Position numbers and translations under genes: made by a program. DNA of 60,000 bases from the NCBI GenBank assembly GCA_965235115.1, contig OZ249436.1, forward strand, positions 27,158,001 to 27,218,000, in the 5' to 3' direction. Under the pieces are notes generated by a model. That model was not told where the DNA came from. It saw only the letters and a program-made list of their open reading frames with translations, and ran no database searches. The DNA is from Laetmonice hystrix. Lineage: Eukaryota. Shown piece after piece: positions 1 through 34,439 of this stretch. Within the stretch, counting starts at the first letter, position 1. The number at the start of each line of letters is the position of its first letter.

Positions 1-777
1 TACCTTGTGGATTCATCACTCAACCAGTTTAAAATAGGCAGAATGGGTTGCACCTGTTCGTTTGATGTTGTTCCGTTGACTCTAAGGGGAAAAGAATCCA
101 CGCTCTGGGGGAGCATGGGGGGGGGGTCCGACCCCCGACCCCTGCTGACATGCGCCTGAAATACTTTGAGAAACTTCACATCTAGCTCCAGAAATAACAT
201 TCTTTGACCATCTAAATTTAAGTCGCCGCCCCCCACCATGTTCGCCTCACACCTTTGGCGCCCTTCCTTTCTTGCAGTACTATTGAACAGGAATATGAAA
301 TCATACATTGTATGCTCTTTTAATTGACACCAAGATTTATTATATACCGTATCATATGATGTCATAATGATGCCATTGACATCTTCCAAGGCTTCTTAGT
401 AATAAACCATTCAAGATAGAGCCATGGTTACAAACACGAATAGGAAGTCATATATGATCTTTCGCTTGACATTTATTACATGACGTGTCTCATGGTGTCA
501 TAGATATTTTTCTCAGGGCAATGACTTGTAAATGGTTGAGGTTGGAACTATAGTTAATATTAAACACTAATAGGAAGTACATGCTCTTTCATTTGAGACC
601 AAGATTTGTGTAGCCTGACGTGCCACCTCATAATTACGTCATTTACCTCATTTAAAGCTTGTAAGTCATTAACCTCGCAAGATTGAGCCATATTGTTCAC
701 CCACTCAGAACGTGTCATATATGACGTGACTCCCCGGGGATGGGATCAATTGTGGTATCGCCACAACGTGTCTAGTT
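1..777 (+). mobile_element. 3' part of a Helentron-associated non-autonomous element (HINE-like), array unit 0
   Basis: Ends in subterminal repeat GGGGATGGGAT, a short hairpin (TTGTGG-TATCG-CCACAA) and GTCTAGTT, identical to the 3' ends of the following units. Confidence 0.75.
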
Positions 778-1052
778 ATCCCATCCCCTACGGAGGGGAT
801 GGGATTTAGAAATTGTGTGGTTTCGTCTTCTGTATTATTATCCCATCCCCTACGGAGGGGATGGGATTTTGAAATTGTGTGGTTTCGTCTTCGGTATTAT
901 TATTATTATCCCATCCCCTACGGAGGGGATGGGATTTAGAAATTGTGTGGTTTCGTCTTCTGTATTATTATTATTATCCCATCCCCTACGGAGGGGATGG
1001 GATTTAGAAATTGTGTGGTTTCGTCTTCTGTATTATTTTTGGCGTCGTAGTT

Positions 1053-1088
<36 letters not shown>

Positions 1089-3197
1089 AACTTGTATGTC
1101 TATCTCAGTCAATTTTCAAAATATCAAAATGAAATTTGGCACACATCTTAACAATGACAAAGTATGGTCAGGCATCGAATCCTGACGTCATGTAACGTCA
1201 CGTCATGACGTGATGACGTCAAACGTATTATGAAAATTGAAGCCATTTTTAAGCTCATATTGGGAATTTTTTTTTAAAAACCATCATGCCCTCATAATCG
1301 GCCAAAGGTGCTGCCTCAATTTGAGTCTTGATTTGACCTTTGACCTTTGACCTTAGGGTGAACTGGGTCATTGGTCACAAATCGGTTAAATTGCTTCTCC
1401 TTCTCTATTTTTTGGTAAAATTCGACAATATTCGGCAAAAACACTCTCTAACGAAAGGTTAACAATACGATTCCAAGGATTAGCGATTTGACCTATTTTC
1501 GCCGAACCACGTGACTTTGAAGTTTGTCACTTTTGACATTTTTTTCTAAAACTGCTTTAGTCATATAGGAATCGTGTATTTGGTCACGAGATATGTGCTG
1601 CTATTGACGATTGGTCACTTTGCATATTTCTTTTCATAAATTTACCAATATCTTTTTTATTTATGATGAAATAATGTAATCTGACGTTGACAGGCTCTAC
1701 CTTAAACCTGTTTAAGATAGCCATATACAAATACAACAATTACAAAGTGTATAGATTCAGGTATACCACTGACTGTTTAGTTCTTGTTTTGGAAAGGTAA
1801 TATGGCCAGAATTGTAAGTTTTAATGGGTATAGTCTTCACTATAATATTTTTACACTCTGACAGGTGGCATCTCTGAATACACAAATCACCTGCTGGGAG
1901 GCCAGAGCCAGGGTCGGCAGAGGGTTACGTAAGCGCTGGTGATAAGGGCCGGCCAGGCGGCCGGGTCGGCAGGCGGGTTGTGACTCCGCCCCCTCCCTCC
2001 CAGTCAGGGTCGGTTTGGTGGAGGATGATTGTGTATTCAGAACTGACATAACTGAATTAGCTGTGCCTTTGAACTGTAGATATAACTGTCTAATGCATTT
2101 GTTTTTAAATCTTACATAGGAGAGCTGAATAAAACACTAGGCTACTACTGATTGTTGGTTGTGGAGTTCAAGAGACACGGCAAACTTTTGGCCAGCTGCA
2201 CTTGGTTTCAGCGTGAGCCAACAGCCTGGTGTGGATGACATTCGCACCTATTGTTCTTGAGTCTGTGATATTTTTCATGATGCCCGTAACGGGTATAATC
2301 CATATAATCCATCAGGACTATAATATTTCATAATGTCAAAAGGATACTAGTAACTTCCATGTGAATGGAAATGACGCTATTGTTGGGACAATAATTAAAT
2401 GAGAGAAAAATATAGGTAATGATAGAAAACCATTCGGGAAATGGGACCTACCTGTATTGCTTGGCAATCAGAGTCTCTAGATATAATTACGATTGTAATG
2501 TATCCTTCCACAATGATTAATATATCAAAATAGGTAGATATACCATGCAGTAGATCTCTATGATCTCTATGTATCTGCACTCTTTCTTTTTGAAGAATTG
2601 ACATTATTGTTAGGCTAGGTCTAAATACAGCCACGTATCTAGGATTTTCAGCAGGGTGGTCGCCGAAATGTTTTTTTTTTAAATTAGAAGCCTTTTATGG
2701 ACCCATTTAGTGCACTATATTTTGTGTAGGCCTATTCATCACTCAACCAGTTTAAAATAGGCAGAATGCTTTGCACCTCTTCGTTCGATGGTGTCCCGCT
2801 GAATCTAAGGGAAAATGAATCTATGCTCTGGGGGAGCAGGAGAGGGGGTCCAACCCCCGGACCCCTACATGCGCCTGAAATACTTTGAGAAACTTCACAT
2901 CTAGCTCCAGAAGTAACGTTCTTTGACTTTCTAAATTCAAGTCCCCCCCCCCCCGCGCCCATGTTCGCCTTGCACCTTTGGTGCCCCTCCTTTCTTGCGG
3001 TACTGGATCTGAGCCTGCATGAAAGCAGGATCATGACGTATGAGATTATAATGATATTAACATTATTTTCCTAAGCCTCCAACTCGTAAACGGTGAAAGA
3101 TTGAGCCATGGTTACTATTGAACAGGAATAGGAAGTCATATATCACGTGACTCCCCGGGGATGGGATCAATTGTGGTATCGCCACAACGTGTCTAGT
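776..3197 (+). mobile_element. HINE-like element, array unit 1, with four tandem copies of the 5' hairpin module
   Basis: 5' palindrome ATCCCATCCCCT-ACGG-AGGGGATGGGAT (x4, 776-1037), (AGT)n microsatellite, conserved core, then 3' subterminal repeat + hairpin + CTAGTT. This is the DINE-1/HINE architecture. Confidence 0.75.
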
Positions 3198-5436
3198 TTT
3201 TGGCGATGTAGTTGTAGTAGTAGTAGTAGTAGTAGTAAACTTGTATGTCTATCTCAGTCAATTTTCAAAATATCGAAATGAAATTTGGCACACATCTTGA
3301 CAATGACAAAGTATGGTCAGGCATCGAATCCTGACGTCATGTGACGTCACGTCATGACGTGATGACGTTAAACGTATTATGAAAATTGAAGCCATTTTTA
3401 AGCTCATATTGGGAATTTTTTTAAAAACCCGTCATGGCCTCATAATCGGCCAAAGGTGCTGCCTCAACGTGAGTCTTGATTTGACCTTTGACCCTTGACC
3501 TTAGGGTGAACTGGGTCATTGGTCACCAAACGGTTAAATTGCTACTTCTTCTTCATTTTGTGGTAAAATATGACAATATTTGGCAGGAAGATTCTCTAAC
3601 AAGAGCTTCACAACTGTTGTTGAACGGATGAGAGATTTGACCTATTTTCGCCGAACCACGTGACTTTGAAGTTTGTCACTTTTGACATTTTTTTCTAAAA
3701 CTGCTTTAGTCATATAGGAATCGTGTATTTGGTCACTAGATATGTGCTGCTATTGACGATTGGTCACTTTGCATATTTCTTTTCATAAATTTACCAATAT
3801 TTTTTTTATTTATGATGAAATAATGTAATCTGACGTTGACAGGCTCTACCTTAAACCTGTTTAAGATAGCCATATACAAATACAACAATTACAAAGTGTA
3901 TAGATTCAGGTATACCACTGGCTGTTTAGTTCTTCTTTTGGAAAGGTAATATGGCCAGAATTGTAAGTTTTGTAAGTTTTAATGGGTATAGTCTTCACAA
4001 TAATATTTTTGCCGTCTGACAGTTGGCATCTCTGAATACACAGATCTCCCACTGAGATGTGGCCGCCGGTCCCTGGCCAGGCCGGGAGAGAGTTACGTAA
4101 GTGCTGGTGATAAGGGCCGGCCGGCCGGCCTACTCCCCCCTCCCTCCCAGTGAGGGAGGAATATGATTGTGTATTCAGGTTCTATCCCCCATGATAACTT
4201 TCCACGAAATGTTTGGGCAGGGGTTAGGGTTAATGTCAGGGATAGGGATAGGGATAGGATAGGGATATGTTTTGGGGAGGTGTAGGGACTGGGGTTAGGG
4301 CTTAGGGCTTAGGGATAAGGTCAGGGCCATGGATCTTTCCTTTCCACCAAATTTCGTGGAGTTTAAGTTATCATGGGCGATATACCTGTATTCAGAACTG
4401 ACTTAGCTGTGCCTTTGAACTGTAGGTGTAACTGCCTAATGCATTTGTTTTTGAATCTTATGTAGGAGAGCTGAATAAAACAATACTACTGATTGTTGGT
4501 TGTGGAGTTCAAGTGACACGACAAGCTTTTGGTCACCTGCACTTGGTTTAGCCTGAGCCAACAGTCTGGTGTGGATGACATTCGCACCTATTGGTAAAGT
4601 TTCATGATGTATGACTACGTGTTGGCTAAATGGCGAGAGATAGAAGTGAACGAACGGTGTGCACAGTAGACAGGTATGCAGTCGTCCAGGCGAGCAGCAC
4701 AATAGATGCAGCCATCACTTGAGCGGGTCTGCGGAGAGACAAGGGGAACGCTCTGTGAGAAATACTTAAGGACTGTTTATAGAAGAGGTACCTTCTCAGT
4801 CATATAACATGCCAGCCATCGGGAGGCAGCTCTCAATCAAATGAGCCGGTCAGGGGCGGTCAGTTAATTGGACGTGGGCCATCGGCCAATGACCAGTGGC
4901 CATCCTTTAGACTGGGACTGGGGCAAAAACGTGAACGAGGGGAAGAGCACCAAGAGAGAGAGAGACTAGGGGAGAAGGAGGAGAGACAGAGCGCCGACCG
5001 GCGCCGCCGGGCGTGGGCACATCCCTCTATGTCCCCACTCTTTTTTTTTTTTTGAAGAATTGACATAAAATTATTGTTTGGCTAGCCCCGGGTCCAGGAT
5101 TTTCAGCAGAGGGGTCACGGGAAGTCTTTAAAAATTAAAAGCTCTAAGAAGAGATTTCCCGCCTTTTAGGGGCTATTTTAGGGCATTATATTTTATGGAT
5201 TCATCACTCAACCAGTTCAAAATAGCCGGAATGCTTTGCTCTATACATGCTCTTTCATTTGAGACCAAGATTTATTACGTAGTATGACGTGTCTCCTCAT
5301 AATTGGCATCTTCTAAAGCTTATTAGTCATGAACTGTGCAAGATCGAGCCATAGTTTACCCTACTCAGAACATGTCATATATGACGTGACTCCCCGGGGA
5401 TGGGATCAATTGTGGTATCGCCACAACGTGTCTAGT
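3197..5436 (+). mobile_element. HINE-like element, array unit 2
   Basis: Begins at the (AGT)n module without the 5' hairpin; shares the core with unit 1; same 3' end. Confidence 0.75.
4176..4388. mobile_element. MITE with telomere-like (TTAGGG/ATAGGG) interior nested in HINE unit 2; copies at 6381-6587 and 7867-8074
   Basis: TIRs CAGGTTCTATCCCCCATGATAACTT / AAGTTATCATGGGCGATATACCTG; TATT duplicated on both sides; the empty site GTGTATTCAGAAC is seen in units 1 and 5. Confidence 0.8.
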
Positions 5437-7632
5437 TTTTGGCGATGTAGTAGTTGTAGTAGTAAACAGTAGTACGTCTATCTCAGTCATTTTTCAAGAT
5501 ATCTCAACCAAATTTGGTACACATCTTGACCATGACAGGGTCTGGTAGGACAACGAGTTATGACGTGATGGGACGTCACGTCATGACGTCATGACGTGAA
5601 AGGTGGTTTTGCACGTTTAGGCCATTTTCTATGCGCATATTAGGAATTTCCAAAAACCTTCATGCCATTGTAATTGGGCAAGGGTGCTGCCTCACTCTGA
5701 CACTTGATTTCACCTTTGACCTTTGACCTTGGGGATAACTGGGCCCTTGGTCACAAATCGGTTAAATCGCTACTCCTTCTTCATTTTGTGGTAAAATTTG
5801 TCAATATTCGGCAGATACACTCTCTAACGAAAGATCCACAAGATGATCGTCGGGGTTTAGCGATTTGACCTATTTTCGCCGAACCACGTGACTTTGAATT
5901 TGTCACTTTTGACATTTTTTTCTAAAACTACTTTAGTCATATAGGAATAATGTATTTGGTCACTAGATATGTGCTGCTATTGACGATTGATCACTTTGCA
6001 TATTTCTTTTCATAAATTTACCAATATTTTTTTATTTATGATGAAATAATGTAATCTGACGTTGACAGGCTCTACCTTAAACCTGTTTAAGATAGCCATA
6101 TACAAATACAAGAATTACAAAGTATATAGATTCAGGTATACCACTGACTGTTTAGTTCTTGTTTTGGAAAGGTAATATGGCCAGAATTGTAAGTTTTAAT
6201 GGGTATAGTCATCAAAATAATATTCTTACGTTCTGACAGTTGGCATCTCTGAATACACAAACCACCTGCTGGGTAGCCAGGGCCAGGGTCGGCAGAGGGT
6301 TACGTAAGTGCTGGTGATAAGGGCCCGCCGGCCGGTCTGTCCCCCTCCCTCCCAGTCAGGGAGGAATATGATTGTGTATTCAGGTTCTATCCCCCATGAT
6401 AACTTTCCACGAAATGTTTGGGCAGGGGTTAGGGTTAATGTCAGGGATAGGGATAGGGTAGGGAGATGTTTTGGGGAGGTGTAGGGACTGGGGTTAGGGG
6501 TTAGGGGTTAGGGATAAGGTCAGGGCCATGGATCTTTACTTTCCACCAAATTTCGTGGAGTTTAAGTTATCATGGGCGATATACCTGTATTCAGAACTGA
6601 CTTGGCTGTGCCTTTGAACTGTAGGTGTAACTGCCTAATGCATTTGTTTTTGAATCTTATGTAGGAGAGCTGAATAAAACAATACCATTGATTGTTGGTT
6701 GTGGAGTTCAAGTGACACGACAAGCTTTTGGTCAGCTGCACTTGGTTTAGCCTGAGCCAACAGTCTGGTGTGGATGACATTCGCACCTATTGGTAAAGTT
6801 TCATGATGTATGACTACGTGTTGGCTAAATGGCGAGAGATAGAAGTGAACGAACGGTGTGCACAGTAGACAGGTATGCAGTCGTCCTGGCGAGCGGCACA
6901 ATAGATGCAGCCGTCACTTGAGCGGGTCTGCGGAGGGACAAGGGGAACGCTCTGTGAGAAATACTTTAGGACTGTTTATAGAAGAGGTACCTTCTCAGTC
7001 ATATAACATGCCAGCCATCGGGCGGCAGCTCTCAATCAAAGGAGCCGGTCAGGGGGCGGTCAGTTAATTGGACGTGGGCCATCGGCCAATGACCAGTGGC
7101 CATCCTTTAGACTGGGACTGGGGCAAAAACGTGAACGAGGGGAAGAGCACCAAGAGAGAGAGAGACTAGGGGAGAAGGAGGAGAGAGAGCGCCGACCGGC
7201 GCCGCCGGGCGTGGGCACATCCCTCTATATCCCCACTCTTTTTTTTTTGAAGAATTGACAAAAAAATTATTGTTTGGCTAGCCCCGGGTCCAGGATTTTC
7301 AGCAGAGGGGTCACGGGAAGTCTTTAAAAATTAAAAGCTCTTAGAAGAGATTTCCCGCCTTTTAGGGGCCATTTTAGGGCATTATATTTTATGGATTCAT
7401 CACTCAACCAGTTCAAAATAGCCGGAATGCTTTGCTCTATACATGCTCTTTCATTTGAGACCAAGATTTATTACGTATTATGACGTGTCTCCTCATAATT
7501 GGCATCTTCTAAAGCTTATAAGTCATTAACTGTGCAAGATCGAGCCATATTTTACCCTACTCAGAACATGTCATATATCACGTGACTCCCCGGGGATGGG
7601 ATCAATTGTGGTATCGCCACAACGTGTCTAGT
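5436..7632 (+). mobile_element. HINE-like element, array unit 3
   Basis: Near-identical to unit 2 in its 3' part, with a different 5' module; same terminal hairpin and CTAGTT. Confidence 0.75.
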
Positions 7633-8957
7633 TTTTGGCGATGTAGTAGTTGTAGTAGTAAACAGTAGTACGTCTATCTCAGTCATGGGTATAGTCATCA
7701 AAATAATATTCTTACGTTCTGACAGTTGGCATCTCTGAATACACAAACCACCCGCTGGGTAGCCAGGGCCAGGGTCGGCAGAGGGTTACGTAAGTGCTGG
7801 TGATAAGGGCCCGCCGGCCGGTCTGTCCCCCTCCCTCCCAGTCAGGGAGGAATATGATTGTGTATTCAGGTTCTATCCCCCATGATAACTTTCCACGAAA
7901 TGTTTGGGCAGGGGTTAGGGTTAATGTCAGGGATAGGGATAGGGTAAGGGATATGTTTTGGGGAGGTGTAGGGACTGGCGTTAGGGGTTAGGGGTTAGGG
8001 ATAAGGTCAGGGCCATGGATCTTTACTTTCCACCAAATTTCGTGGAGTTTAAGTTATCATGGGCGATATACCTGTATTCAGAACTGACTTGGCTGTGCCT
8101 TTGAACTGTAGGTGTAACTGCCTAATGCATTTGTTTTTGAATCTTATGTAGGAGAGCTGAATAAAACAATACCATTGATTGTTGGTTGTGGAGTTCAAGT
8201 GACACGACAAGCTTTTGGTGAGCTGCACTTGGTTTAGCCTGAGCCAACAGTCTGGTGTGGATGACATTCAAGGGAAATGCTCTGTGAGAAATACTTAAGG
8301 ACTGTTTATAGAAGAGGTACCTTCTCAGTCATATAACATGCCAGCCATCGGGCGGCAGCTCTCAATCAAAAGAGCCGGTCAGGGGCGGTCAGTTAATTGG
8401 ACGTGGGCCATCGGCCAATGACCAGTGGCCATCCTTTAGACTGGGACTGGGGCAAAAACGTGAACGAGGGGAAGAGCACCCAGAGAGAGAGAGAGACTAG
8501 GGGAGAAGGAGGAGAGAGAGCGCCGACCGGCGCCGCCGGGCGTGGGCACATCCCTCTATATCCCCACTCTTTTTTTTGGAAGAATTGACAAAAAAATTAT
8601 TGTTTGGCTAGCCCTGGGTCCAGGATTTTCAGCAGAGGGGTCACGGGAAGTCTTTAAAAATTAAAAGCTCTTAGAAGAGATTTTCCGCCTTTTAGGGCAT
8701 TATAATTTGTGGATTCATCACTCAACCAGTTCAAAATAGCCGGAATGCTTTGCTCTATACATGCTCTTTCATTTGAGACCAAGATTTACTACGTAGTATA
8801 ACGTGTCTCCTCATAAAATTTTGGCATCTTCTAAAGCTTATAAGTCATTAACTGTGCAAGATCGAGCCATAGTTTACCCTACTCAGAACATGTCATACTA
8901 TATCACGTGACTCCCCGGGGATGGGATCAATTGTGGTATCGCCACAACGTGTCTAGT
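7632..8957 (+). mobile_element. HINE-like element, array unit 4 (internally deleted copy of unit 3)
   Basis: Deletions at ~7686 (about 700 bp) and ~8270 (about 160 bp) relative to unit 3; termini retained. Confidence 0.75.
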
Positions 8958-10560
8958 TATTATCCCATCCCCTACGGAGGGGATGGGATTTAGAAATTGT
9001 GTGGTTTCGTCTTCCGTATTATTATTTTTGGCGATGTAGTAGTTGTAGTAGTAAACAGTAGTACGTCTATCTCAGTCATTTTTCAAGATATCTCAACCAA
9101 ATTTGGTACACATCTTGACCATGACAGGGTCTGGTAGGACAACGAGTTATGACGTGATGGGACGTCACGTCATCACGTCATGACGTGAAAGGTGGTTTTG
9201 CACGTTTAGGCCATTTTCTATGCGCATATTAGGAATTTCCAAAAACCTTCATGCCATTGTAATCGGGCAAGGGTGCTGCCTCACTCTGACACTTGATTTC
9301 ACCTTTGACCTTTGACCTTGGGGATAACTGGGCCCTTGGTCACAAATCGGTTAAATCGCTACTCCTTCTTCATTTTGTGGTAAAATTTGTCAATATTCGG
9401 CAGATACACTCTCTAATGAAAGATCCACAAGATGATCGTCGGGGTTTAGCGATTTGACCTATTTTCGCCGAACCACGTGACTTTGAATTTGTCACTATTG
9501 ACACTTTTTTCTAAAACTGCTTTAGTCATATAGGAATAATGTATTTGGTCACTAGATATGTGCTGCTATTGACGATTGATCACTTTGCATATTTCTTTTC
9601 ATAAATTTACCAATATTTTTTTATTTATGATGAAATAATGTAATCTGACGTTGACAGGCTCTACCTTAAACCTGTTTAAGATAGCCATATACAAATACAA
9701 GAATTACAAAGTGTATAGATTCAGGTATACCACTGACTGTTTAGTTCTTGTTTTGGAAAGGTAATATGGCCAGAATTGTAAGTTTTAATGGGTATAGTCT
9801 TCACTATAATATTTTTACACTCTGACAGGTGGCATCTCAGAATACACTAATCACCCGCTGTGAAGCCAGAGCCAGGGTCGGCAGAGGGTTACGTAAGGGC
9901 TGGTGATAAGGGCCGGCTGGCTGGCCCGTCAGTTGTGACTACTCCCCTCCCTCACAGTCAGGCTGGGGTTGGAGGAATATGATTGTGTATTCAGAACTAA
10001 CATAAGTGTATTAGCTGTGCCTTTGAACTGCAGGTGTAACTGTCTAATGCATTTGTTTTCTAATCATACCTAGGAGAGCTGAATACATGTCAGGGGCGGA
10101 TCTCCACTCCGAAGAATTGACATTATTGTTAGGCTAGGTCTAAATACAGCCACGTATCTAGGATTTTCAGCAGGGTGGTCGCGGAAATGTTTTTTTTTTT
10201 TAAATTAGAAGCCTTTTATGGACCCTTTTAGTGCATTATATTTTGTGTATTCATCACTCAACCAGTTTAAAATAGGCGGAATGCTTTGCACCTGTTCGTT
10301 CGATGGTGTTCCGCTGAATTTAAGGAAAAATGAATCTATGCTCTGGGGGAGCAGGAGAGGGGGGTCCAACCCCCGGACCCCTACCGACATGCGCCTGAAA
10401 TACTTTGAGAAACTTCACATCTAGCTCCAGAAGTAACGTTCTTTGACTTTCTAAATTCAAGTCCCCCCCCCCCCCCGCCCATGTTCGCCTTGCACCTTTG
10501 GTGCCCCTCCTTTCTTGCGGTACTGGATCTGAGCCTGCATGAAAGCAGGATCATGACGTA

Positions 10561-11560
10561 TTTAGTGGATAAAGCACTGTCAGAGCCAGTCGAGACGTTG
10601 TTATGGCGAAATAATGCACGAGCCGAAGGCGAGTGCATTATATCGCCAGAACAACGTCGATCGTTATCACGTGACTTTCATTGACTTAGCGAGCCACTCG
10701 GAACACCGACGCTGCTTCTGATTGGCTGTTTCTAGGTCATATCCGGAGGCGAAGCAGGCCTCGGATGTATGAAGCGGCCATTTTCCCGTTTTTCGTGCAA
10801 AGTAGTGTAAAGCGGTCGCACATGAACACAGAGAGTAAATAGTCGACCCCTACGCACAGGCACATAGGCCTAGTTCAAATATAATTTCTCAGCATACCTG
10901 TACCTCGAATTTTCTATCGTGGAGACAAAACAGTCTCTTCTTCACCTGGGAGGAAACCCAGATATTCTGACTTTGTATAAAGTCCGACACTAGGGAGTTC
11001 TACATTTTCGGCACGGCGGCAGCGCGCGAGTTTGTTGTTTACATCCGGGTCAGCGGTCCCGACCTAGCCACCCACCCACCCCACCCCCCAGCATGGGAAC
11101 CTTCGTCGTACAGCCGAGATATGACGGAGTCAATCGTGGGTGAGCCGAGTGTTAGCGAGCCTATAAAAGGAGCTTTCTGATTGGACGGAACATTAAGGCC
11201 ATGCATTCAGCAATAGCGCCATCCCCTCTACTAGGCAAATGGACTCGGCGCGTCATTTAAACGATGTAAACAGAGTTCGCTGTGGGCATATCGAATCGAA
11301 ACGACCCAACTGAACTATACAGACGGGTTTCTTCTCGTAATTCTATAACAACTGCGAAGTCTCAGCCATTAACACTCCATTAGTTGCTAGTTCTACCTAT
11401 TGACAACCTTGAAGCGAGGACAGGCAAACACAATGAATTCGAATGAGCACCCTCTCCGATTGGTCAATTCATGACGCGTCATACCCGTGAATTATGGCTC
11501 TAATAATTTCACGGTTTTGGGCCTATAACACACGCTGGGAGCAGCCAGGCGTGTGCTAAG
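10561..11560 (+). mobile_element. Non-autonomous Crypton-like (tyrosine-recombinase-dependent) element
   Basis: About 1 kb insertion absent from unit 1 (empty site ACGTATGAGATT at ~3037); no TSD; palindromic 5' end around GAGCCGAAGGCGAG; hairpin 3' end ending GTGTGCTAA; 5' end repeated at 41109. Confidence 0.55.
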
Positions 11561-11690
11561 AGATTATAATGATGTTAACATTATTTTCTTAAGCCTCCAA
11601 CTCGTAAACGGTGAAAGATTGAGCCATGGTTACTATTGAACAGGAATAGGAAGTCATATATCACGTGACTCCCCGGGGATGGGATCAATT

Positions 11691-12396
11691 CGCTGCCTTT
11701 CTGGCGAACCGTCGAATATGGGGTTTAGACGGAACTGAGAAAAACGCACTTGAAGTTTTGCACTTTTCTCAAACATCCTCAAAATCAATCTAACATTATT
11801 TCTTTCATTATTTTTATGGGAATCGCTAATATACGATACGATACGGCATACTTTGGAATCCATTTGACGCTAACAGTAATTTCCGGCAAAATAATGAAGG
11901 CTAAAAATAGCCATGCCATATTCGACGGGTCCCGAAAAAGTTCTACGTCACTTTATGTCATATTCGACGCATATTCGACGCATATTCGACGGTTCGCCGG
12001 AAAACTTTTATCTCGCCCGTGAATATTCGACGCATATTCGACGGTTCGCCGAATATTCGACGTGTTGCTATAGAAACCATACGTGATCACTGGTCATATC
12101 ATTACCTTATTTGGGCATAATTTCTATATTCGACGGTTCGCCGTAAAAAAATTATCAAGTACGTACAAATAATTTCCGGGAGAACCGTCGAATATGAATA
12201 TTCGACGGTTCACCGAAAAGTAAATCGAAGACATTTCATATTCGCCAAAGGACCCGACGTTAATATCTCGCTAATTCTCGCCCGGAGGGTAATGAAATTT
12301 TCAGGGATTACAGATGTCTTCAAAATTATTAAGAATCAACTAAAAACTCAATTTCGCCAAAACCCCCATATTCGACGGTTCGCCAGAAAGGCAGCG
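11691..12396. mobile_element. MITE, Sola1-like
   Basis: 33-bp TIR CGCTGCCTTTCTGGCGAACCGTCGAATATGGGG, 4-bp TSD AATT, internal repeats of ATATTCGACG(GTTCGCC); splits the HINE 3' end. Confidence 0.8.
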
Positions 12397-14238
12397 AATT
12401 GTGGTATCGCCACAACGTGTCTATATATATAGTTAGACATAGGCCTAGTCCCGTCTATAGTCAAGAATAGAGACTGTGTAGGACATGCATGCGTGGCCCA
12501 GGCACTGCAGGATGGGTGCAGTTTTTCCAGTAGATCTAGGCCTAGATCTAGTCGCTGTTTCAAATGGCTAACCTGAAAGCTTCCAGCTGCTTATACTCTT
12601 CAAACTCGATTATTTCTATGAATTATTACTTTTCTAATTTTAGGAGTAAAAATGACCAAATTTGTTATCTCTTAGCCTTTTAGGCCTATGGCGAGGAGAA
12701 ATAGCCTGTGGACTCGGCCTAATCGAATGCGCGCAGGCCTATAGATCGGCACCGTAAGTTGGGACCTTGGGAGGGCATCCAGTTCAACCCCCACTTGAAT
12801 CTTCAGAAAGTGATATATATATTGTTCTAGTTGATAATAGTCTGAAGAGTCAGTCTTAATGTTAATGTAAACCTGAATGTCATGAAAATCAATCCTTATT
12901 TTATGGTTATAAACAGTATTATTTCAGAGCGCTGCTGCTCAAAAGCCTGTCCTGGCCGGGTGTCTTGTGCTTGTAGTTGTAGAGCTATCAACACGTTCGT
13001 TGTCATCGCCTGGGCCAGAGACTGGCCGGCGACAACGTCCTCGTAATCAGCATTGGCTACAATTTTATAGCCTGGGTTCAATCTGTTTGTGCTTTCATTG
13101 TCACTTGTGACATCCAAGTGACATCATAGTATAGTTAGCTACGTATTTTGATACATAATATTACAATGTTTCACTGGCAAAAAGACAATGCGTGCCTCAA
13201 CTGTGGCTGTGACGTCATAGACATGACGTGCGGTGCAGTCTTGAATAGAAGGCTAGATCTAACGTAGACTGCACTCTTTTGCTGTCTAGCTCTCGTTTTA
13301 TCGAAAGATGCATTAAAATACTACATAAGCAGAAACTTAAAAGGTCAGTAGATATTCTCAGAATATTATAGCATTATAATTTATCTTTTTAAACATCACC
13401 GTAGGCCCCTGATCCGACAAAGCTTAGTTTGGAACCTGGCTTTCTGTTGTGATATTTGACGTCATTATCAAGTTTTGGGCACTTTTGAAATTTCCATAAA
13501 AAGCTCGCTGTATTCATAACTATAAAGAGTCTCGCTAAAAGGAAGACATCCTCGGAGACCTTACGATGTGGGGAATAATTCTGGGTACTTTTTTGTATAG
13601 GTCGTCGCGACAGATTTTGCGTGGCAGCCTGCCAAACACGGAAAGGTCATACGTTTTTGGAAGTTTTCATAACAAGTTTCTATGGTTTCCATAGCTCGAG
13701 AGAATTGAAAATTATACGTAATCTGTCTAATTTCTATACTAGCTCATAGCCTTGAATCTCTACTTTCATTTGCCACCATTCCTGTCCCGATTGACCAACT
13801 ATGCACACCGCGAGCATGCTTTTAATCAACTGAGGTATCAAAAACTAAGTTTTTGGGTCCCAATTTGAGGTGCCGCACCTGGAATCCTTGTCAAATTCCC
13901 TTTCCACCAATATCAATTTTATGAAGATTGGTCCAGTAGTTCCTGAGATATGATGGTTCAAAGGTAGGCGGTCAAGCCCGGTTTGACCGAAAATCTCAAA
14001 GTTTGGGGGTCCGTATCTCCCAAACCACTGGTCCGACTGACCTAAAATTTGCGATTTGGTGCTGTGGGATCCCAATCAACAAGTATACCAAGTTTCATCA
14101 ATCGGAGAGGGTCGGGTTTAAAATGTTTGTTTTTTTGGGTGATTTGACATGGAATGACCCCATGAAAGAGATCGTTCACTTCACTCAACCTCTGCCACAC
14201 CCTGGGTCCTCCCTACTGCCGTTTCAGTGACCCCTGAC

Positions 14239-14696
14239 TGGCCTGGTCCCCAGCTCTATATTAACTTCGTATATAAAGCCTGGTGATGGCCAATCGAAGC
14301 AAGCGTTGTGATTGGCCCATCGAAAACATGGACGCAAACGAGGTATAGTTCCGTACCCTCCGTATTTCTCCAACAAGACACAAATATTTTCGTCAATCCC
14401 TTTAAAATACAAGTGTTAAATGTCCTCGCTTTTCTGAATGTAAACATAGCGTCACCAGTCCCCACACCTGCTACGGTCTGCATACGCACGGGCATGTTGC
14501 TATTGTTGGCCACTCCCGGCCACGCTCCAAGCAGAAGTCAATCACTCTGTTAACGCTGACCAACGGACCGGAGGCGGAAGTGATTAGCTCCGAGGCGGAA
14601 GTGCTTGGAGATCATCACTTCCGTTTTACAGCTTTCTGTTAGCCATCACCGGGCCTAACATAGCGGATGCGTATGGTAGGCGCGGGGACCAGGCTA
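14239..14696. mobile_element. MITE with 9-bp TSD (Academ-like termini)
   Basis: Termini TGGCCTGGTCCCC / GGGGACCAGGCTA flanked by direct repeat ACCCCTGAC (14230-14238, 14697-14705). Confidence 0.7.
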
Positions 14697-15039
14697 ACCC
14701 CTGACCTGACCCCCCGGGTCTGGTTTGCTCTCAGCTGATTGGTCAATTTACCACTTCGCAGTCTCAGCGCGCGCGAAGCATCATGGGATTGCATCGGGAT
14801 AAACAAACCGGCTGGCCTCAGTAAAACGCTCTAATATCGCTCATATATTCAGAACATTCCAACTGTCTCTAGCAAGGTATATTTGGATAAAAAATATCAA
14901 AGTTTGCGGGACGACTGCCCATATAGGCTAAATAATGAAGATTTCAAACGTTGTTTTATGGGTGACTGAGTATTTTATTAGAAAACATCCAGGAGTTGGC
15001 TACGCCTACGCCGGCCAAACATAGCCTCACTGACATAGT

Positions 15040-15401
15040 CATAGGCGTACATAGCACCGGAAGATATTCACAGGTGTGGGGGGGGGGGGCAAAAACCAAA
15101 TCATAGGTCCCAAGTTCCGAGCGCCAAAGGCACGAAGCCTCGAGCGGGGGGTCTGGGGGTCCTCCCCCAGAAAAATCTGAGATTTAAAGTGCCAAATACG
15201 CGTTTTCCTGGCATCTTCTGGTAGGGAACAAAGTCTAGGACTAGGCCCTCTGTCTCTGACGGTCTGACCATCTCCTGCCACCTTTGACCAACTTTAGCTG
15301 GGGGGGGGAACTATTTGCTTGCCCCCCCCCATCAGCTTTTGAGTTGGGGGGGGGGCAACGGCCCCCTTTGCCCCCCCCCCCCCCCCCGGTTTCGGCGCCT
15401 A
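15040..15401. mobile_element. G/C-run-rich MITE-like repeat
   Basis: Termini CATAGGCGT...GGCGCCTA; interior motifs (GAGCGCC-AAGGC, GGGGGGTCTGGGGG, poly-G/C) shared with the repeat at ~45460-45740. Confidence 0.5.
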
Positions 15402-15659
15402 GACCTAGGCTATGCCAAACTTTAGAATTAGGGAGTCAGCTAGCTAACGCCGGTTAACGGTTAGAGTGCCGCCACATCCACAACCTGGCACAGGCACAGG
15501 CACAAATTTGAGGGGATTAGGATCTAGAGTAGAGGCTAGACACTAGATCTATCTCTAGGCCTAGATCTACTATAACACGTTAGACTATAGTGGACTGGAC
15601 TGGAGCACTCTGGCTCTGCCAGCTCTAATAATTTTTAAAATAACGATAACGATTTTAAA

Positions 15660-16192
15660 CGCTGTTCCTCAGAAGGACTACCCCACCTTAGAGCAAGGCC
15701 GGTTGAGTGTCAATCTAATTAAAATTAGATCTTGGTATTCCGCTTCTCTCTCGGCTGTTTCAGTGCTGGAGCGCATGCGAAATAACTAAGACCTAATTTT
15801 AATTAGATTGGTTGAGTGTCAAGGGCAAGAAAGATGAACTATGTGCCTTACTTTGCCCTTAGCCTGTGCTTCTCACTGCATGTGCTCAGAAACCTGTGCT
15901 GCTGTGCAGCTCAGGAAAGTACCAGAAAGAAATTTGAGGAATACCAGACATTGCTGAAAATTGACAGTTGTACCATTCCCGATCCCTTTGATCTTTCTGG
16001 ATGGGTTGGCAAGGCATATTCCTGTTTTGACTCTGCTTGGCTTCAGCAGATATGTTACCACCACATGCCCTATTTCTGAAAAATCTCCAGTATGCCTGAT
16101 GAAGTCCTCATCCACCCCTTCTGCCCAGATATTCAACCCCTCCCACCAAATTTGGGTGGCTGTTGAGAATATATTTGCTCATGTGTTGCTGG
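15660..16192 (+). pseudogene. Decayed DNA-transposon accessory gene (SAP-like N-terminus and SWIM zinc-finger region)
   Basis: Frame-shifted peptides LSVKGKKDELCAL / EYQTLLKIDSCTIPDPFDLSGWVG / KAYSCFDSAWLQQICYH / ISEKSPVCLMKSSSTPSAQIFNPSHQIWVAVE / ICSCVAG followed by GTAAGT; resembles SWIM-domain ORFs of ISL2EU/Kolobok-type elements (recalled, not searched). Confidence 0.55.
15711..15810. mobile_element. 100-bp MITE with 9-bp TSD
   Basis: TIR CAATCTAATTAAAATTAG / CTAATTTTAATTAGATTG; TSD GTTGAGTGT (15702-15710, 15811-15819). Confidence 0.8.
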
Positions 16193-17612
16193 GTAAGTCC
16201 ATAAAAAAACATTAAAAAATGTCAAAGATTAATTATAAATAAAGATAAATACAGTTCTTTTTATTCCAATAAATTTTTCTGTATAGGGGGCTACTCCATT
16301 TTTCATTACTTCAGGTTTGGGATACTTGTATGCAAAATGAAAGGGAGTATCAAAAAGGTAAACAAATTACAATTTTGTGAATTTACATCTGGGGATTTTA
16401 TGGACTGATTGTACAGCATGTTTGTGTGGTAGACAGCAGGTCCAGGTTGTTTGGATTCTTTGGCCTGGGTCAATATTTAGTGTACCATGATGATGCTATA
16501 TCTTTTGGTTGTACCGCTCTGTCATTTTTTAAAAACTCAAACTGGTGGTGGGTGCTCTACTTTAGCATGACAATAATGTTCCTTCTGTTGGATGATGTAA
16601 CATTCCCTATTTAGTGTGATTCTTGAATGAATGAAGGTGCTACTTCAATTCACTGACCCTTATTAAATTTTAGTATTTGCATTTATGTAGGCCCTACGTA
16701 GATGTAAAATACAAAAAGGCTCATGCCGCTAAAAAATGCAACCAAGCAACCAGAGCTAGTTTTGCATGTTGCATTCAAAACCATCGGCCAGCAAATAAGC
16801 ATGATCTATATGAACAGATGAATGCAAATTTACTTTAGTTGACCCATGATTTCACCAGGTCTCAATGAGTATGGTCTTTGGGTAAGGTAATCCTTTATCG
16901 ACATGTGCTAAATAAATTGTGATATTCCTTTTTAATTCAGAAACTGATAAATTCCTTGCTAGTTTTATAATCACTTTGTGTGTAACACAGTGTTAACTTC
17001 CATGCAAATTATACATGTATGTAGAAATTAGAACTTGTTTTTACTAAGTACCGGGCGTACTACCAGATTTCTTGTATCCTTTTCTCTTTCTCTTTATTAG
17101 CAGTTTATTCACACCCCCAACCGCCCTACTGAGGAATGGGATCTTGAAATTTTTGTGTTCGTAGTAGGGTAGTAGTAGTAGTAGTAGTAGATCTAGTAGT
17201 AGTATAATAGTTTCTGATCCAAATTTGCATGAATGTCTGCTGCATATCATCTATTTCCATCGCTGAATGGTGTAAGTACTGTTGCTACACCCGCTAACTG
17301 CACAGATCCGCATGATTTTTCCAAGTGTCAGCAACTGACTGAAAGATAGAATAAAACAAGAGCCGTAGACAAAGAGAAGCAGGAGAAAACACATTTTTGG
17401 AGATTCCACTGAGACAGTTTTATCTATTATTATTAGATCTCTAACCTTGAAATAAAGCGATCATTTCATTTTGGCAAATATTCTTACTGGCCCACATTAC
17501 ATGAATGAGGAGGATTCCAAATCCCTTGGCTTATACAAACCTGAGAAACACTAGTAGATCTAACGGTTAGTAGTTACCAGTAGCAAGTTTAAGCAAAAAG
17601 GATCAAAGCATG

Positions 17613-17769
17613 CAGGCGCGGATCCGGGAGGGGGGGAAGGGGAGGGTCCAGGGGGTCCGGGCCCCCCCCCCCCCGCTCAGCATCAACTTAGGTTTTTGCT
17701 ATGTTATCGGGGAAGGGCCCCAGACTTTTTGCCCCCCCCCCCCTGCATAAATTCCTGGATCCGCGCCTG
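17613..17769. mobile_element. Small G/C-rich MITE
   Basis: TIR CAGGCGCGGATCC / GGATCCGCGCCTG; flanking direct repeat GCATG. Confidence 0.7.
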
Positions 17770-17782
17770 GCATGATAGGTGC

Positions 17783-18130
17783 GATAAGGGTAAAATCTTA
17801 CCCTAGGATCGCCACTCGGGGGGGGGGGGTCTTACTTTTCTAGGTCTTACTTTTCCTCAGGGTGTCTAGAAAAGTAAGACCTAGAAAAGTAAGACCTAGC
17901 TGCTTGCTAAAAAATAGAAATGGATAAGGGTAAAATCTTACCCTAGGAGTGCCACCAGGGGGGGGGGTCTTACTTTTCTAGGTCTTACTTTTCTAGGTCT
18001 TACTTTTCTAGGTCTTACTTTTCTAGGTCTTACTTTTCTAGGTCTTACTTTTCTAGGTCTTACTTTTCTAGGTCTTACTTTTCTAGGTCTTAGGTCTTAC
18101 TTTTCTAGGTCTTACTTTTCTAGACACCCT
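17783..18130. mobile_element. MITE with a 15-bp internal tandem repeat (GGTCTTACTTTTCTA), preceded by a partial copy of itself
   Basis: TIR AGGGTGTCTAGAAAAGTAAGACC at ~17859 and its complement ending ~18130; 17783-17853 duplicates ~17923-17993. Confidence 0.7.
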
Positions 18131-18144
18131 AGGTGGGGCATTCA

Positions 18145-30745: not shown

Positions 30746-30884
30746 TACCAGATATCCATACAAACATTGCAATAATGACCTAATACGTTGTGGTGATACC
30801 ACAATGGATCCCATTTTCGGGGTGTCCCGTCCAACATGTTATGAGAAGGGATAACAATGCTGCCATCATGCAACCGGACGACTA

Positions 30885-33170
30885 AGAAGCCTTAGAAGAT
30901 GCAAATTATGTCATTATGACAACTGAATTGTTTAATAGTAACTCTGGTTCTAACCTCAACCATTTACAAGTTATAGCCCTAAGAAAATATAAATGACATC
31001 CTTATGATATCACAGGTCACGTGACCTAAAAAGTAATGTTGTCAAATGAAAGAGCATACCGATCGGGTATGGGCCTAAAAATTTTAGAACACTCTTTTCT
31101 TGACTGTAACTTTTACAATTTTTACCCCAATGTCATAATATATGGAACATGATATCATCTAGTTAATTGGGGCATGTGGTACAAATTTCAGATAAATAGG
31201 TCAAAAATTGCAATGCCGGACCAGGCGTCCTTGGCAGAGTTGGTCCCGCTGTGTCTGGAACACTATAGATTCTACAATTTTCATAGTTTGTCACTGATAT
31301 TTAGGGCATCATGTTGTATAGTTAATAGCCTTTTGTGGTGAAAATTTGGCAGATGGGCCAAAAACTCTTTATGTGGAAACGAATCAAACATCAAATGTCG
31401 AAAAATGCAATGCCGGAGAGCCATATAAGTGTCACCCACCTATTTCAGTTAAAAAGGAAAAGGTGATCGATGTGACCCCCATCCTGTTCACTGTTCACAG
31501 CCCTTAGTCTCTTTTTGAATATCCCGGCTGACTTCCTGACTTCTTCTAGAGTAATTCCTCCCACCTTTCCCGAATTTTCTCCTTCAGTGCGTTCTCGGCG
31601 AATTTGTGTTTGCGACCTTTATATACTTTATTAGACAGGGAATCCCAAATAGTGTAATCTATGGGGGTTAAGTCGGGACTGGCCACCAGTTTTGGGCAAG
31701 GGGCATTTTATACATTTGACGTCACATCATTCAGACACAGTGGCAACAACCCTGCCTTAATTTGGACACACACTAAGAAAACTGGGTCATTCGATGCGAC
31801 GGGACAATTTTCCGCTGGTCCGGCATTGCAATTTTTGACACGAATTTTTAGGAATGGCCCTATTTGTAGAGGTTTTAACCTATTTATCTGAAATTTGCAC
31901 CACAGACCCCATATGATATCATGTTCCAAATATTATGACACTGGGGTAAAAATTATAGAAGTTACAGTCAAGAAAAGAGTGTTCCAAATTTTTTTGGCCC
32001 ACCCGATATATGACTTCCTATTTTTGTGTCTAATAATATCTAGGGCTCTAACTTCAACCAATTACAAGTTATATCCCTGACAAAGTATGGTTGACATCGT
32101 TATGACGTCACAGGTCGCGTGACCTGAAAAATAATGGTGCCAAGTGAAAGAGCATATAGGACTTCCTATTCGTCTTCAATAGTAACTATGGCCCTATCTG
32201 GCACTGTTTAGAAGTTATAGCCATATAGCTAAACTGACCACCGTTGAAAACTTCAAGGTCACGTGATTCAGCGAATATAGGTCAAATCGCTTATCCCTGA
32301 ATGATTCTATTAAAGCACTTGTTAGAAAGTGTTCCTGCCCCATACTGTCAAATTTTACCAAATTCCCAGTTCTCCCAAAGGTCAAAGGTCAAATGAAGGA
32401 TCAATTTTAAGCATGACCCATGCCTGATTATAGCAATGATGGGTTTTGGAAATTCTCAATATGAGCTTTAAAAATGGCCTCAATGTACAAATCACGTATG
32501 ACGTCATGACAAGACGTCACGTGACGTCATGACTGATTGTATGACCTGTCTTTGTCATGGTCAAGGTGTGTATTCATGAACAATTATGGCTCTGTCTTAT
32601 ATCTTTCAAGAGTTACAGCCAGGAATCTTCCAAATGGCCTAACTTTATAACTTGCAGGTCACGTGGTTCAGCGAAAATAGGTCAAATCGTTAAAAATAAT
32701 GGCGCCAAATGAAAGATCATATCACTTCCTATTTGCGTACAATAATAAACATGGCCATTTATGGCAAGCATCTTCGAGTTATAGCCTTATATTGTCACGT
32801 TTTATCAAAAAATGAATAAGTAGGATTTAACCCATTTACGAACTAGGACCCAGTTCTCCCTAAGGTCAAAGGTCAAAGGTCAAAGGAAGGGTCTGTCTTT
32901 GGCAAGACCCTTGCTTAAAATGCCTTGATATATATTGTAAATTCCCAATACGAACTTTAAAAATGGCCCCCAATGTCCCAAAAATTTGACGTCATGACGT
33001 TACGTCACGTGACGTCATGAGTCATTGTCTGACCAGACTTCGTTATAGTCAAGATGCCTACCAAGTTTGGTTGAGATATCTTGAAAAATGACTGAGACAG
33101 ACATAGTGTTTACAACTACTACACAAAGACAATTTCAAAATCCCCTCCCCTCCGTGGGGATGTGATAATA
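30885..33170 (-). mobile_element. Diverged inverted member of the same HINE-like family
   Basis: Minus strand from 33170 reads TTATTATCACATCCCCACGGAGGGGAGGGGATTTTGAAATTGT..AGTAGTTGTAAACAC..TCTCAGTCATTTTTCAAGATATCTCAACCAAA, then CRE-rich and TGACCTTTGACCT modules as in units 1-5; 3' terminus not found. Confidence 0.75.
31059..32006. mobile_element. Tc1/mariner-type MITE with long (~170-200 bp) inverted repeats, nested in the inverted HINE
   Basis: TCGGGT..GGGCC.AAAAATTT.GAACACTCTTTTCTTGACTGTAACT mirrored at the right end; inserted at TA within GAGCATAT..GACTTCCTATT. Confidence 0.7.
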
Positions 33171-34439
33171 AAGAACGACAACAAACCACTTCATGTTTCA
33201 AATATGTTTTCCTTATTTGTGAACATTATAATCACGCCACTACCTTCATCACATGTACAAAAGAAGAAATAATTTATTATGTAAATTAATTATGTAAATG
33301 ACATGATACTTTCATAATTTGTTTCCAGCATTTTACATTCAAATAATTCTTTGAAATGTCAAACTGAACTAACAAGGACTTTGTATATCATTTAATTATA
33401 ATTATACACAATACATTTATGTAAAAGGCTTAACAGTTGACTTTACATAAACTATTGTGCTTGTACAGATTACAAAAGTCCACAGTCACATGTACAATTT
33501 AAGCCGCGAAATGAACGATTAGGCCTACAATTATGATTACAGAAAGATTGCGATTGCGATTACAGAAAATTTGCAATGGTCGATTACGATTACAGTAATT
33601 ACAAATTATTACGATTCTAATCGTAATCGGCCCCATGGCTGCTCTCATGTACCTAAAGTGAAATCAACCCTGTGTAACAAATAATATCACGTATATTAAT
33701 TATTCAAAACCAGCTAAAACAGAACATCGTGTTGTATTACGCTTGTCATATGTTGTAAACCTTAAAGTTCCGTATTGTTATAACTGAACCATCGCTGCTT
33801 GTTGTGCTTCGATATTTCACTGTGAACACGATGATGCTCGACTACGTGGAAAACATAGCAAGATTGAATGAACCAGGTTACTAATATTGAAACTGAATAA
33901 TCCTGTAGTTTAATTAGGACATAATGATGTATTCGCATCTTCACTTCAGATCAAAATTGCCTCATCAGTGAGAGAAAATATTCTTAACTTGATCCAGCGA
34001 TTCCACTTCTTTATCATATTCAAATAAAATTTCGACCGACCATCATTCTATTTTATCATTCTCACATACACATTCGCTTCAAATTATTTGTTACTGAAAA
34101 AGGCATGAAACTTCGCCAATATACACATATCATATTGTGTTTACAGTAAGCTAACCTATAATCTAATTATTCGGTCAAGTTATGATGCCCCCCCCCCCCT
34201 CCCAACCTCCAGCCTAGAAGAAAATGAGGCTGAACCTAACCTTGGTCTTCAAAAATTCCTTCACCAAACCACAGTATATGGAGATGGCGGTTTTGTGAGA
34301 TTTTCTAGAAAGTCGCCCTATAGAAATATGCTGATGGGTGGGTACTAAGGCGAGAAAACAGCTTTTATAGCTAATGTATAATGTACCCATCAAGAAACAA
34401 ATTGATCGATTGGCAATACCGTGGTTTGCAACAAGAACT

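Follow-up and report, generated by a model that had tools for sequence, protein, structure and literature searches.

A stack of small rolling-circle transposons probably built by repeated insertion into resident copies

Positions 1 to 12432 of the window (the whole stretch of 60,000 nucleotides analysed here) hold six related elements that abut one another on one strand, raising the question of whether such a block arose as a tandem array or from separate arrivals. Our analysis indicates that the stack was probably built by repeated same-strand insertion of non-autonomous HLE2 elements into resident copies.

The six units share a 3' terminus composed of GGGGATGGGAT, TTGTGG-TATCG-CCACAA and CGTGTCTA(G), with ends at 775, 3196, 5435, 7631, 8956 and 12423. 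The subterminal repeat, hairpin and CTA(G) end described in the initial annotation were thus found at all six ends, and this end structure supports its assignment of the units to HINE-like, rolling-circle elements. The 11-bp subterminal inverted repeats (subTIRs) are asymmetric, with ATCCCATCCCC in the five copies of a 5' hairpin segment of 62-68 bp (hereafter the cap) and GGGGATGGGAT at the six ends, where the 3' subTIR stops 29 nt ahead of the final G. The 5' hairpin includes the 5' repeat in a 12-bp stem (z -4.45; as stable in 0 of 200 shuffles). The 3' stem-loop directly follows the 3' repeat, and its 6-bp stem is kept in all six ends (7 bp in a dispersed copy); it is energetically weak (z -1.4 to -1.9; matched in stability by 8 to 17 of 200 shuffles), and one of three minimum-energy folds lacks it. 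CTAG is followed by TT at five of the six ends, and the sixth is an expanded CTA(TA)4G, extending to 12432, again followed by TT; the 3' flank of the old dispersed copy is not TT. The target is TT, without target duplication, and the empty inner site is represented by the intact joint between the cap and a T5 run in units 1 and 5; insertion as T^T or as A^T reads identically in the sequence.

Microsatellites lie close to the 5' end, (GTA)14 at 1047-1088 and (GTA)10 at 3208-3237, and both unit 0 and the dispersed copy contain internal tandem repeats of ~133 bp. No reading frame of at least 130 aa was present between 396 and 19377, with one open-ended frame of 131 aa at 3-395; Rfam gave 0 matches on 1-13000, and Pfam 0 families on two frames outside the array. 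Together, these features support classification of the elements as small, non-coding, non-autonomous HLE2 (HINE/Helitron2-like) rolling-circle transposons. A canonical Helitron (HLE1; 5' TC, without subterminal inverted repeats) was rejected, because the elements start with TT(A) and possess subTIRs; their CTRR terminus is the only feature that fits. No autonomous Rep/helicase partner with the same ends was seen, and no relative in the metagenome, genome and viral contig collections scanned. The 3' end pattern matched 0 loci in metagenome contigs. The cap-hairpin pattern matched 1 locus in metagenome contigs, 6 in genome contigs and 0 in viral contigs; none of the 7 resembled the element beyond the hairpin, and they were attributed to chance.

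All parts of the stack lie on the + strand. Unit 0 (1..775) is the 3' part of an element truncated by the window start, its cap lying to the left of the window; it combines a stretch resembling X and an end resembling Y with several of the ~133-bp subrepeats, and both parts are ~10-12% from the other units. Four caps follow: cap a (776..837), with a TTA leader, ATCCCATCCCC in the 12-bp hairpin and a TTA tract, is outermost, followed by cap b (838..902), cap c (903..970) and the innermost cap d (971..1035), which runs on into body 1; cap borders within the TTA tracts are uncertain by ~3 nt. Cap b differs from the other three at 2 of 56 positions, and one of these variants (TTTTGAAA) occurs in the dispersed copy too. 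Body 1 (1036..3196) comprises T5, (GTA)n, 5' module A1, a core at 1485-1832, an X-type 3' part and the 3' subTIR, hairpin and CTAG. The next three bodies are capless: body 2 (3197..5435) has 5' module A2, a core at 3634-3990, a private post-core allele and a Y-type 3' part; body 3 (5436..7631) has 5' module B, a core at 5862-6206 and a Y-type 3' part; and body 4 (7632..8956) is of B-Y type, 0-2.3% from body 3, with two internal deletions of ~710 bp including the core (joint 7684/7685) and ~155 bp (joint 8268/8269). Unit 5 (8957..12432) has a full cap (8957-9024), module B, a core at 9451-9795, a private post-core allele and an X tail.

Insertions inside the units and one dispersed copy complete the inventory. 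An inverted-repeat insertion of ~200 bp at 6384..6585, with a 9-bp duplication (TGTATTCAG), is common to the Y bodies (also ~4179-4386 and 7870-8072), and its empty site is found in units 1 and 5. Unit 5 carries a secondary insertion of ~1 kb (10561..11559) with a long terminal palindrome, its first 102 bp identical to 41107-41208, as well as a 706-bp MITE (11691..12396; ~36-bp terminal inverted repeats, AATT duplication) that separates the 3' subTIR from its hairpin. The empty site of the former is present in unit 1 and read contigs, that of the latter in the other five ends and read contigs. The dispersed, older family member (30781..33171, - strand) has one degenerate cap, subrepeats and a 3' end but lacks the core; it includes the 5' module twice, 66-74% alike to A and B.

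Although the initial annotation described a head-to-tail array, only two of the five internal junctions (775/776 and 8956/8957) join an end to a cap, and the fourfold cap at 776-1035 had been missed. At the other three junctions an end meets the T5 run located behind the cap position, exactly where units 2-4, which have no cap, begin: all three capless bodies start with CTAG|TTTTTGGCG, the point at which the cap repeat stops in units 1 and 5. When caps and ends are parsed as brackets, four caps are matched by four ends, depth 0 is regained at 8956, and one cap and one end follow. With 416 TT sites in unit 1 (233+183 on the two strands), three insertions at one site are not a matter of chance. 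Between the caps there are 2, 4 and 4 TTA, compared with 1-2 in lone leaders and lone inner tracts; the inter-cap counts are sums of tracts, as expected of insertion without loss. The segment 776-8956 is thus likely a four-deep nest, cap[cap[cap[cap body1]body2]body3]body4, with each insertion at one TT site behind the previous cap. Cap a would pair with body 4, cap b with body 3 and cap c with body 2, and the implied order of arrival would run from body 4 first to body 1 last. As a check on this pairing the caps are weak, having only 0-2 differences in 56 positions; two sites distinguish cap a from cap b, yet bodies 4 and 3 are near-identical.

The modules themselves point to several sources. 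Units 1, 2, 3 and 5 were compared over five alignable blocks with gap-adjacent columns removed. Fifty-nine sites group units 1+2 against 3+5, all within the 5' module and core, 34 group units 1+5 against 2+3, all behind the core, and 1 groups units 1+3. The site patterns form 4 runs, against a permutation mean of 45.7 and minimum of 26 (0 of 100,000 permutations as low), and the grouping switches between unit-1 positions 1737 and 1841. An unfiltered global alignment gave 65, 87 and 1 sites; one of the 1+2 sites fell behind the core (at 1974 of unit 1), and the tail contributed many columns that lack true homology and were dropped. The mosaic of A/B with X/Y modules reported initially is therefore real, the sites switching once and the module trees being incongruent. 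The accompanying view of two modules of each kind did not hold, given 38 differences in 393 sites (9.7%) between the A modules of units 1 and 2 and four alleles, 9.1-14.1% apart, of the post-core segment (~177 bp); the array contains three 5' alleles. The core is indeed near-identical between units (1.1-2.3% apart), over ~350 bp rather than the ~450 bp first given.

Since the four post-core alleles are this divergent, at least four distinct donors contributed to the block, which single-template read-through with recombination inside the array cannot build. Unit 2 (AY) is not derivable from its neighbours, since it diverges by 9.7% from unit 1 in the A module and by 12.6% from unit 3 in the post-core segment; the post-core segment of unit 5 is 10-13% from all others. 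Recombination near the core, as initially proposed, is supported, whereas read-through followed by production of AX, AY, BY and BX in the array is not, in view of the caps and of these segments that have no match in neighbouring units. We infer that the chimeras mostly arose earlier in the family, through recombination at the two core edges, and arrived ready-made. The B halves of units 3, 4 and 5 are 0.8% apart, for which local exchange is possible on sequence grounds; that at least one chimera or duplication among units 3-5 formed locally is conceivable, if somewhat doubtful.

Contigs built from reads, covering four of five runs (X1, X2, X3 and X5), bear on both the joints and the exchanges. 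The sets X2, X3 and X5 come from one sample, which may be the source of the assembly; no read record spans the array, the order of units rests on the assembly, and the contigs are too short to bridge the 350-bp core and so link 5' with 3' modules. All three junction classes are present: end to capless body at depths of 941 (X2) and 868 (X3), end to cap at 770 and 703 (X2, X3), and cap to cap at 139, 76 and 26 (X2, X3, X5); by comparison, the lowest-depth contigs among those listed for X2 and X3 have depths of 31-62. Among the joints listed, cap-to-cap depth is ~1/7 of end-to-body depth, whereas pure nesting predicts equal totals, a ratio that unlisted variants could change; the end-to-body joint retains one TTA in the reads, and the zero-TTA form of the array is not among the joints listed. 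In some contigs the core-start box is joined directly to the 3' subrepeats, with skips of 2113, and unlike sequences enter at 9448 (11 contigs) and leave at 9487 (13 contigs), which identifies this box as a family-wide swap point. Units 3 and 5 both have G at 9701. This allele makes up only 1.2% of summed depth in X2 and 1.8% in X3, a rarity suggestive of local kinship between these units rather than independent arrival. A marine metagenome from another study (X1) contained 14 matching pieces, a small share, including core pieces and no joint; one has Y-type sequence on either side of 10011-10085. These pieces were given no weight in the argument.

The caps could also reflect a head-to-tail array of full elements, in which slippage or unequal crossing-over between the flanking TTAT repeats later duplicated the cap in unit 1 and deleted it in units 2-4. 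The cap does sit between two short direct TTA tracts, caps a, c and d are identical across 56 nt, and the end-to-TTA-T5 joint in the reads is an expected deletion product too. However, all three capless junctions of the array lack TTA, leaving just 2 nt of homology, two cap-cap junctions carry 4 TTA, equal to two whole tracts together, as many caps would have been gained (3) as lost (3), and the cap b variant is present in the dispersed copy, so that we regard this history as quite unlikely. We consider decidedly unlikely a mixed history of shallower real nesting, in which a multi-cap donor arrived, as has been proposed for FoHeli, and either a capless body (unit 3 or 4) was duplicated locally or the B half of unit 5 was copied from unit 3 or 4. 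This would be consistent with the small distances between units 3 and 4 (0-2.3%) and between B of units 3 and 5 (0.8%), with their common rare base at 9701, and with the transposition of multi-cap copies in Fusarium (PMC5148889; PMC13342296, available sections), but the counts of caps and bodies would then match by coincidence. Moreover, 0.8-2% also separates the cores of unrelated units, and such low distances may therefore only date a common burst.

The model of the initial annotation, a rolling-circle concatemer from one donor followed by core recombination or template switching in the array to give AX, AY, BY and BX, agrees with the incongruent trees and their switch within 1737-1841 of unit 1, with the two genuine end-to-cap junctions, and with the presence of 98-99% identical cores as direct repeats 2-3.6 kb apart that could recombine. 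It is nonetheless very unlikely: one template is expected, yet there are four post-core and three 5' alleles, parts of units 2 and 5 have no possible source in a neighbour, and three of the five junctions are capless with three extra caps in front. Mis-assembly or concatenated haplotypes would agree with two points: no read record crosses the array, and alleles of marine invertebrates can differ about as much as units 3 and 4 do. Against this extremely improbable explanation, the read contigs contain each of the three junction classes as well as the two empty sites, the longest identical stretch between any two units is 240 bp, and the brackets balance.

Under repeated insertion, each element would offer as targets the two TT-containing tracts that it carries on either side of its cap, the 5' TTA leader and a (TTA)n-T5 tract 62-68 nt inside. 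Insertion into the inner tract would split the host into cap and body, giving the nest at 776-8956, and insertion into the leader would give the head-to-tail junctions 775/776 and 8956/8957; a Rep/helicase would presumably act in trans. Every insertion would add fresh copies of both tracts, so that the site renews itself. A further proposal, tentative and rather unlikely, is that the family's transposase is guided to its landing site by the 5' hairpin of a resident copy and nicks the TT tract on either side, making every copy a self-renewing, strand-specific target; cores would then recombine in nests, where capless bodies form close direct repeats behind spare caps, and the outer cap would mobilise the recombined body. 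If this reading is true, the chimeric subfamilies of this family originate in nests. Neither the class of element nor self-insertion in itself is new. For the choice of target by HLE2 elements, the available sections of PMC4067079 offer only a hypothesis, and a complete nest with one exact site provides a testable target. Its last-in-first-out order would also date subfamilies relatively without a clock, here B-Y, B-Y, A2-Y and A1-X, and Helitron 'tandem arrays' can be nests that annotation and read-through models would misread.

HINE or DINE-1 elements (Thomas, Vadnagara, Pritham 2014, PMC4067079) are the non-autonomous partners of Helentrons. As described in the available sections, they resemble our elements in their short subTIRs, an inverted repeat nested with the 5' subTIR, a 5' microsatellite, a 3' stem-loop, a T-rich target without target duplication and a lack of coding capacity; insertion into their own cap and nests are not part of that description, the 3' subTIR lies 38-60 nt from the end in mite families compared with 29 nt here, and our collection scans found no endonuclease-bearing partner of the kind that defines Helentrons. 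Helitron2/HLE2 elements (Bao and Jurka 2013, PMC3627910; HELIANO, PMC11417382) likewise have asymmetric TIRs of 8-15 bp, the 5' TIR in a 5' hairpin, the 3' TIR 20-30 bp from the end just before a 3' hairpin, a 5' T and T/T insertion. Our elements differ in their CTAG end, as in canonical Helitrons, in a 5' TIR 2 or 5 nt from the end, and in self-targeting, which is not among the features described in the available parts of those papers.

Adjacency from site preference is known for tandem TE dimers formed by double insertion (McGurk and Barbash 2018, PMC5932611); those elements duplicate their target, unlike ours, and Helitrons are unmentioned in the available text. Plant Helitron concatemers also show multiple 5' ends (Xiong et al. 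2016, via PMC12628747), but as summarised there each copy is a truncated version of one template and only a single 3' end is present, unlike the stack. Nesting is not shown in the available account of oyster HINEs (PMC7492417). In the main texts of a mainly open-access literature we found no description of an animal HLE2 element whose 5' hairpin is followed by a complete nest at one fixed site, nor, in mainly open-access literature, of Helitron template switching giving chimeric elements.

A further parallel is FoHeli of Fusarium and Metarhizium, whose 5' termini of 31-85 nt are repeated up to five times, a pattern ascribed to self-insertion (Chellapan et al. 2016, PMC5148889; PMC13342296). 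According to the available sections, three Helitrons of M. acridum were interpreted as the product of two insertions into a 5' end, and one copy lies 2 bp upstream of another; closer cases may be present in the supplements to PMC5148889 (Table S6, Figs S11-S13). FoHeli shares with our stack several short 5' termini and the same self-insertion model. In contrast to FoHeli as described there, the present locus lies in an animal-type genome and has additive TTA counts, and whereas the fungal product mostly consists of several 5' termini with one 3' end, four bodies with their ends survive here, making this nest complete and orderable.

Self-BLAST and motif mapping placed six units on one strand within 1-12423, and the common 3' end reported by the initial annotation was recovered in each: GGGGATGGGAT, a 6-bp stem-loop, then CTAG (at 775, 3196, 5435, 7631 and 8956). 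Unit 5 closes at 12421-12432 in CTA(TA)4G, in place of the plain CTAG seen in read contigs, possibly through slippage or as the footprints of a TA-targeting element. Unit 0 is cut off at the left edge of the window, and unit 4 has lost sequence in two internal deletions. Neither open frames of 130 aa (396-19377) nor Rfam matches (1-13000) were found.

The mosaic of alternative 5' (A, B) and 3' (X, Y) modules also held up. In five alignable blocks of units 1, 2, 3 and 5, with columns near gaps excluded, 59 informative sites, every one of them in the 5' module or core, grouped units 1 and 2 against 3 and 5, and 34 grouped units 1 and 5 against 2 and 3, all behind the core, with one discordant site; the series formed 4 runs, whereas 100,000 permutations never gave fewer than 26. 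The unfiltered alignment gave 65, 87 and 1 sites, with one uniting units 1 and 2 behind the core; it contained many tail columns that are not homologous, and these were dropped. The grouping switches between 1737 and 1841 (unit-1 positions). A and B modules are 20% apart, units differ by 1.1-2.3% in the ~350-bp core, and all three Y bodies, but neither unit 1 nor unit 5, carry a 200-bp insertion and its 9-bp duplication.

Missed in that account was a cap layer. The 5' end of the element is a 62-68 bp cap, consisting of a TTA leader, an 11-bp subterminal inverted repeat (subTIR) in a 12-bp hairpin (fold z -4.45) and a (TTA)n tract that precedes a T5 run, and the older dispersed copy (33171-30781) likewise opens with one. 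Four caps stand consecutively at 776-1035 and one at 8957; units 2, 3 and 4 have none and begin exactly at the T5 run. In a bracket parse, the four caps have been matched by as many ends by 8956 and unit 5 forms a closed pair of its own, so that three of the five junctions are nest exits and two are end-to-cap. The proposed head-to-tail array thus stands for the latter two but not for the three exits, where bodies lack caps. Unit 1 offers 416 TT sites (both strands), and the three inner insertions all used one of them in the same direction. TTA counts between caps are 2, 4 and 4, the sums of a host tract (1-2 where it occurs singly) and a guest leader (1-2), as predicted by insertion without loss.

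Between units 1 and 2 the A modules show 38 differences over 393 sites, and the ~177 bp behind the core comprise four alleles (units 1, 2, 3=4 and 5) that are 9.1-14.1% apart; X tails (units 1 and 5) differ by 2-3% and Y tails (units 2-4) by 1.7-2.8%. Since A, post-core and Y-tail distances disagree, unit 2 is a composite of three or more pieces. These alleles, the A-module difference and a longest identical stretch between any two units of 240 bases are not what read-through copying of a single template yields.

We consider it probable that the locus is a self-targeted nest, four elements deep and adjoined head-to-tail by two neighbours, and that it is built of recombinant subfamilies. A putative trans-acting Rep/helicase would place single-stranded copies into TT tracts flanking a resident 5' hairpin, with insertion into the inner tract giving a nest and insertion into the leader a head-to-tail joint, and every new copy would restore both tracts; the enzyme may be guided by the hairpin, or may need nothing beyond the T-rich tract. 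Body 4 would have arrived first, then 3, 2 and 1. The chimeras most likely came from family-wide recombination at core edges and arrived ready-made, and their formation would be about as old as the 1-2% core divergence. Cap slippage is an unlikely source of the repeated caps: microsatellite slippage could add TTA units, but recombination between tracts would leave fewer TTA than seen. A shallower nest plus local duplication seems rather improbable, and read-through followed by shuffling inside the array is very unlikely given the several donor alleles; from the sequences compared, neither unit 2 nor unit 5 could be built from neighbouring units alone. Mis-assembly has hardly any probability.

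The read data were contigs only; five runs contain part of the stretch, and four of these were compared with 8957-14200. Runs X2, X3 and X5 are one sample, possibly the source of the assembly. Contig depth, which when summed does not equal copy number, was 941 and 868 for ends joined to capless TTA-T5 bodies, 770 and 703 for end-to-cap joints, and 139, 76 and 26 for cap-to-cap joints. Lowest-depth contigs among those listed for X2 and X3 reached 31-62, so that all three joints seem to exist at many places. Some contigs fuse the core-start box directly to 3' subrepeats, and unlike sequences enter this box at 9448 and leave at 9487; these joins indicate that the middle of the element, core plus tails, was acquired and that the box is a family-wide swap point. 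Against the nest reading, no contig in the read data spanned the whole array; among the contigs listed, no zero-TTA exit like that of the array was found and the cap-to-cap joint was far shallower than the exit joint. Also against it, units 3 and 5 share a G at 9701 that X2 and X3 carry at only 1.2-1.8% of depth. Taken with the B modules of these two units, which are 0.8% apart, this single site gives a hint of short-range hopping, of one period of activity of a small subfamily, or of exchange within the locus; the in-array recombination first proposed survives to this extent for units 3-5.

Unit 5 received two later insertions, and the empty sites of both are present in read contigs. The 706-bp MITE (11691-12396), with ~36-bp terminal inverted repeats, its own end motif repeated many times inside and a 4-bp AATT duplication, lies between the 3' subTIR and hairpin and has probably disabled this end; its AT-rich duplication presumably recalls Sola elements. 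The ~1-kb insertion (10561-11559) showed neither terminal inverted repeats nor a clear duplication; it begins with 102 bp that recur without a mismatch in a stand-alone palindrome of ~125 bp (41107-41231), and its depth in read contigs is high.

Several ~133-bp subrepeats lie near the 3' ends of unit 0 (1-775) and the dispersed copy (30781-33171, minus strand), and the X and Y ends resemble such an array shortened in different ways; the subrepeat stretch has the top depth in read contigs (bin 11582-11756). Inspection of the alignment by eye suggests that the X tail (2626-3016, 10145-10540) contains a degenerate element of ~390 bp, which has inverted but imperfect ends and a GGGGGTCC..CCCCGGACCCC hairpin and of which Y tails keep the left part only. 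At 17135-17204, a degenerate GGGAT..TTGAAATT..(GTA)n resembles the family's cap-microsatellite region and is possibly a decayed 5' fragment. The entire window is rich in repeats: a 52-bp minisatellite (29420-30740; 25 copies, 77% matches) directly abuts the dispersed copy at its 3' end, and tandem arrays with 82-98% matches occupy 18947-19619 (337-bp units), 37356-37536 (59-bp), 38312-38697 (61-bp), 52829-53660 (41-bp) and 55051-55703 (83/95/178-bp). A 402-aa open frame (58673-59881, plus strand) had no Pfam match and by look resembles what we take to be the first ORF of tyrosine-recombinase (DIRS-like) retroelements.

The ends agree with Helitron2/HLE2 as described in the available portions of two sources (PMC3627910, PMC11417382), and their layout with DINE-1/HINE in the accessible part of another (PMC4067079); Helentron membership would require an endonuclease-bearing partner. 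The openly accessible article texts searched showed no animal HLE2 with a complete nest at one fixed site. Self-insertion itself is already known from fungi: the sections consulted describe Helitron insertion near the 5' end with repeated 31-85 nt 5' termini and a possible double insertion at a Metarhizium 5' end (PMC5148889), and up to five 5' termini within one fungal copy (excerpts of PMC13342296). Tandems arising through site preference are likewise described for Drosophila transposable elements in the available text of PMC5932611.
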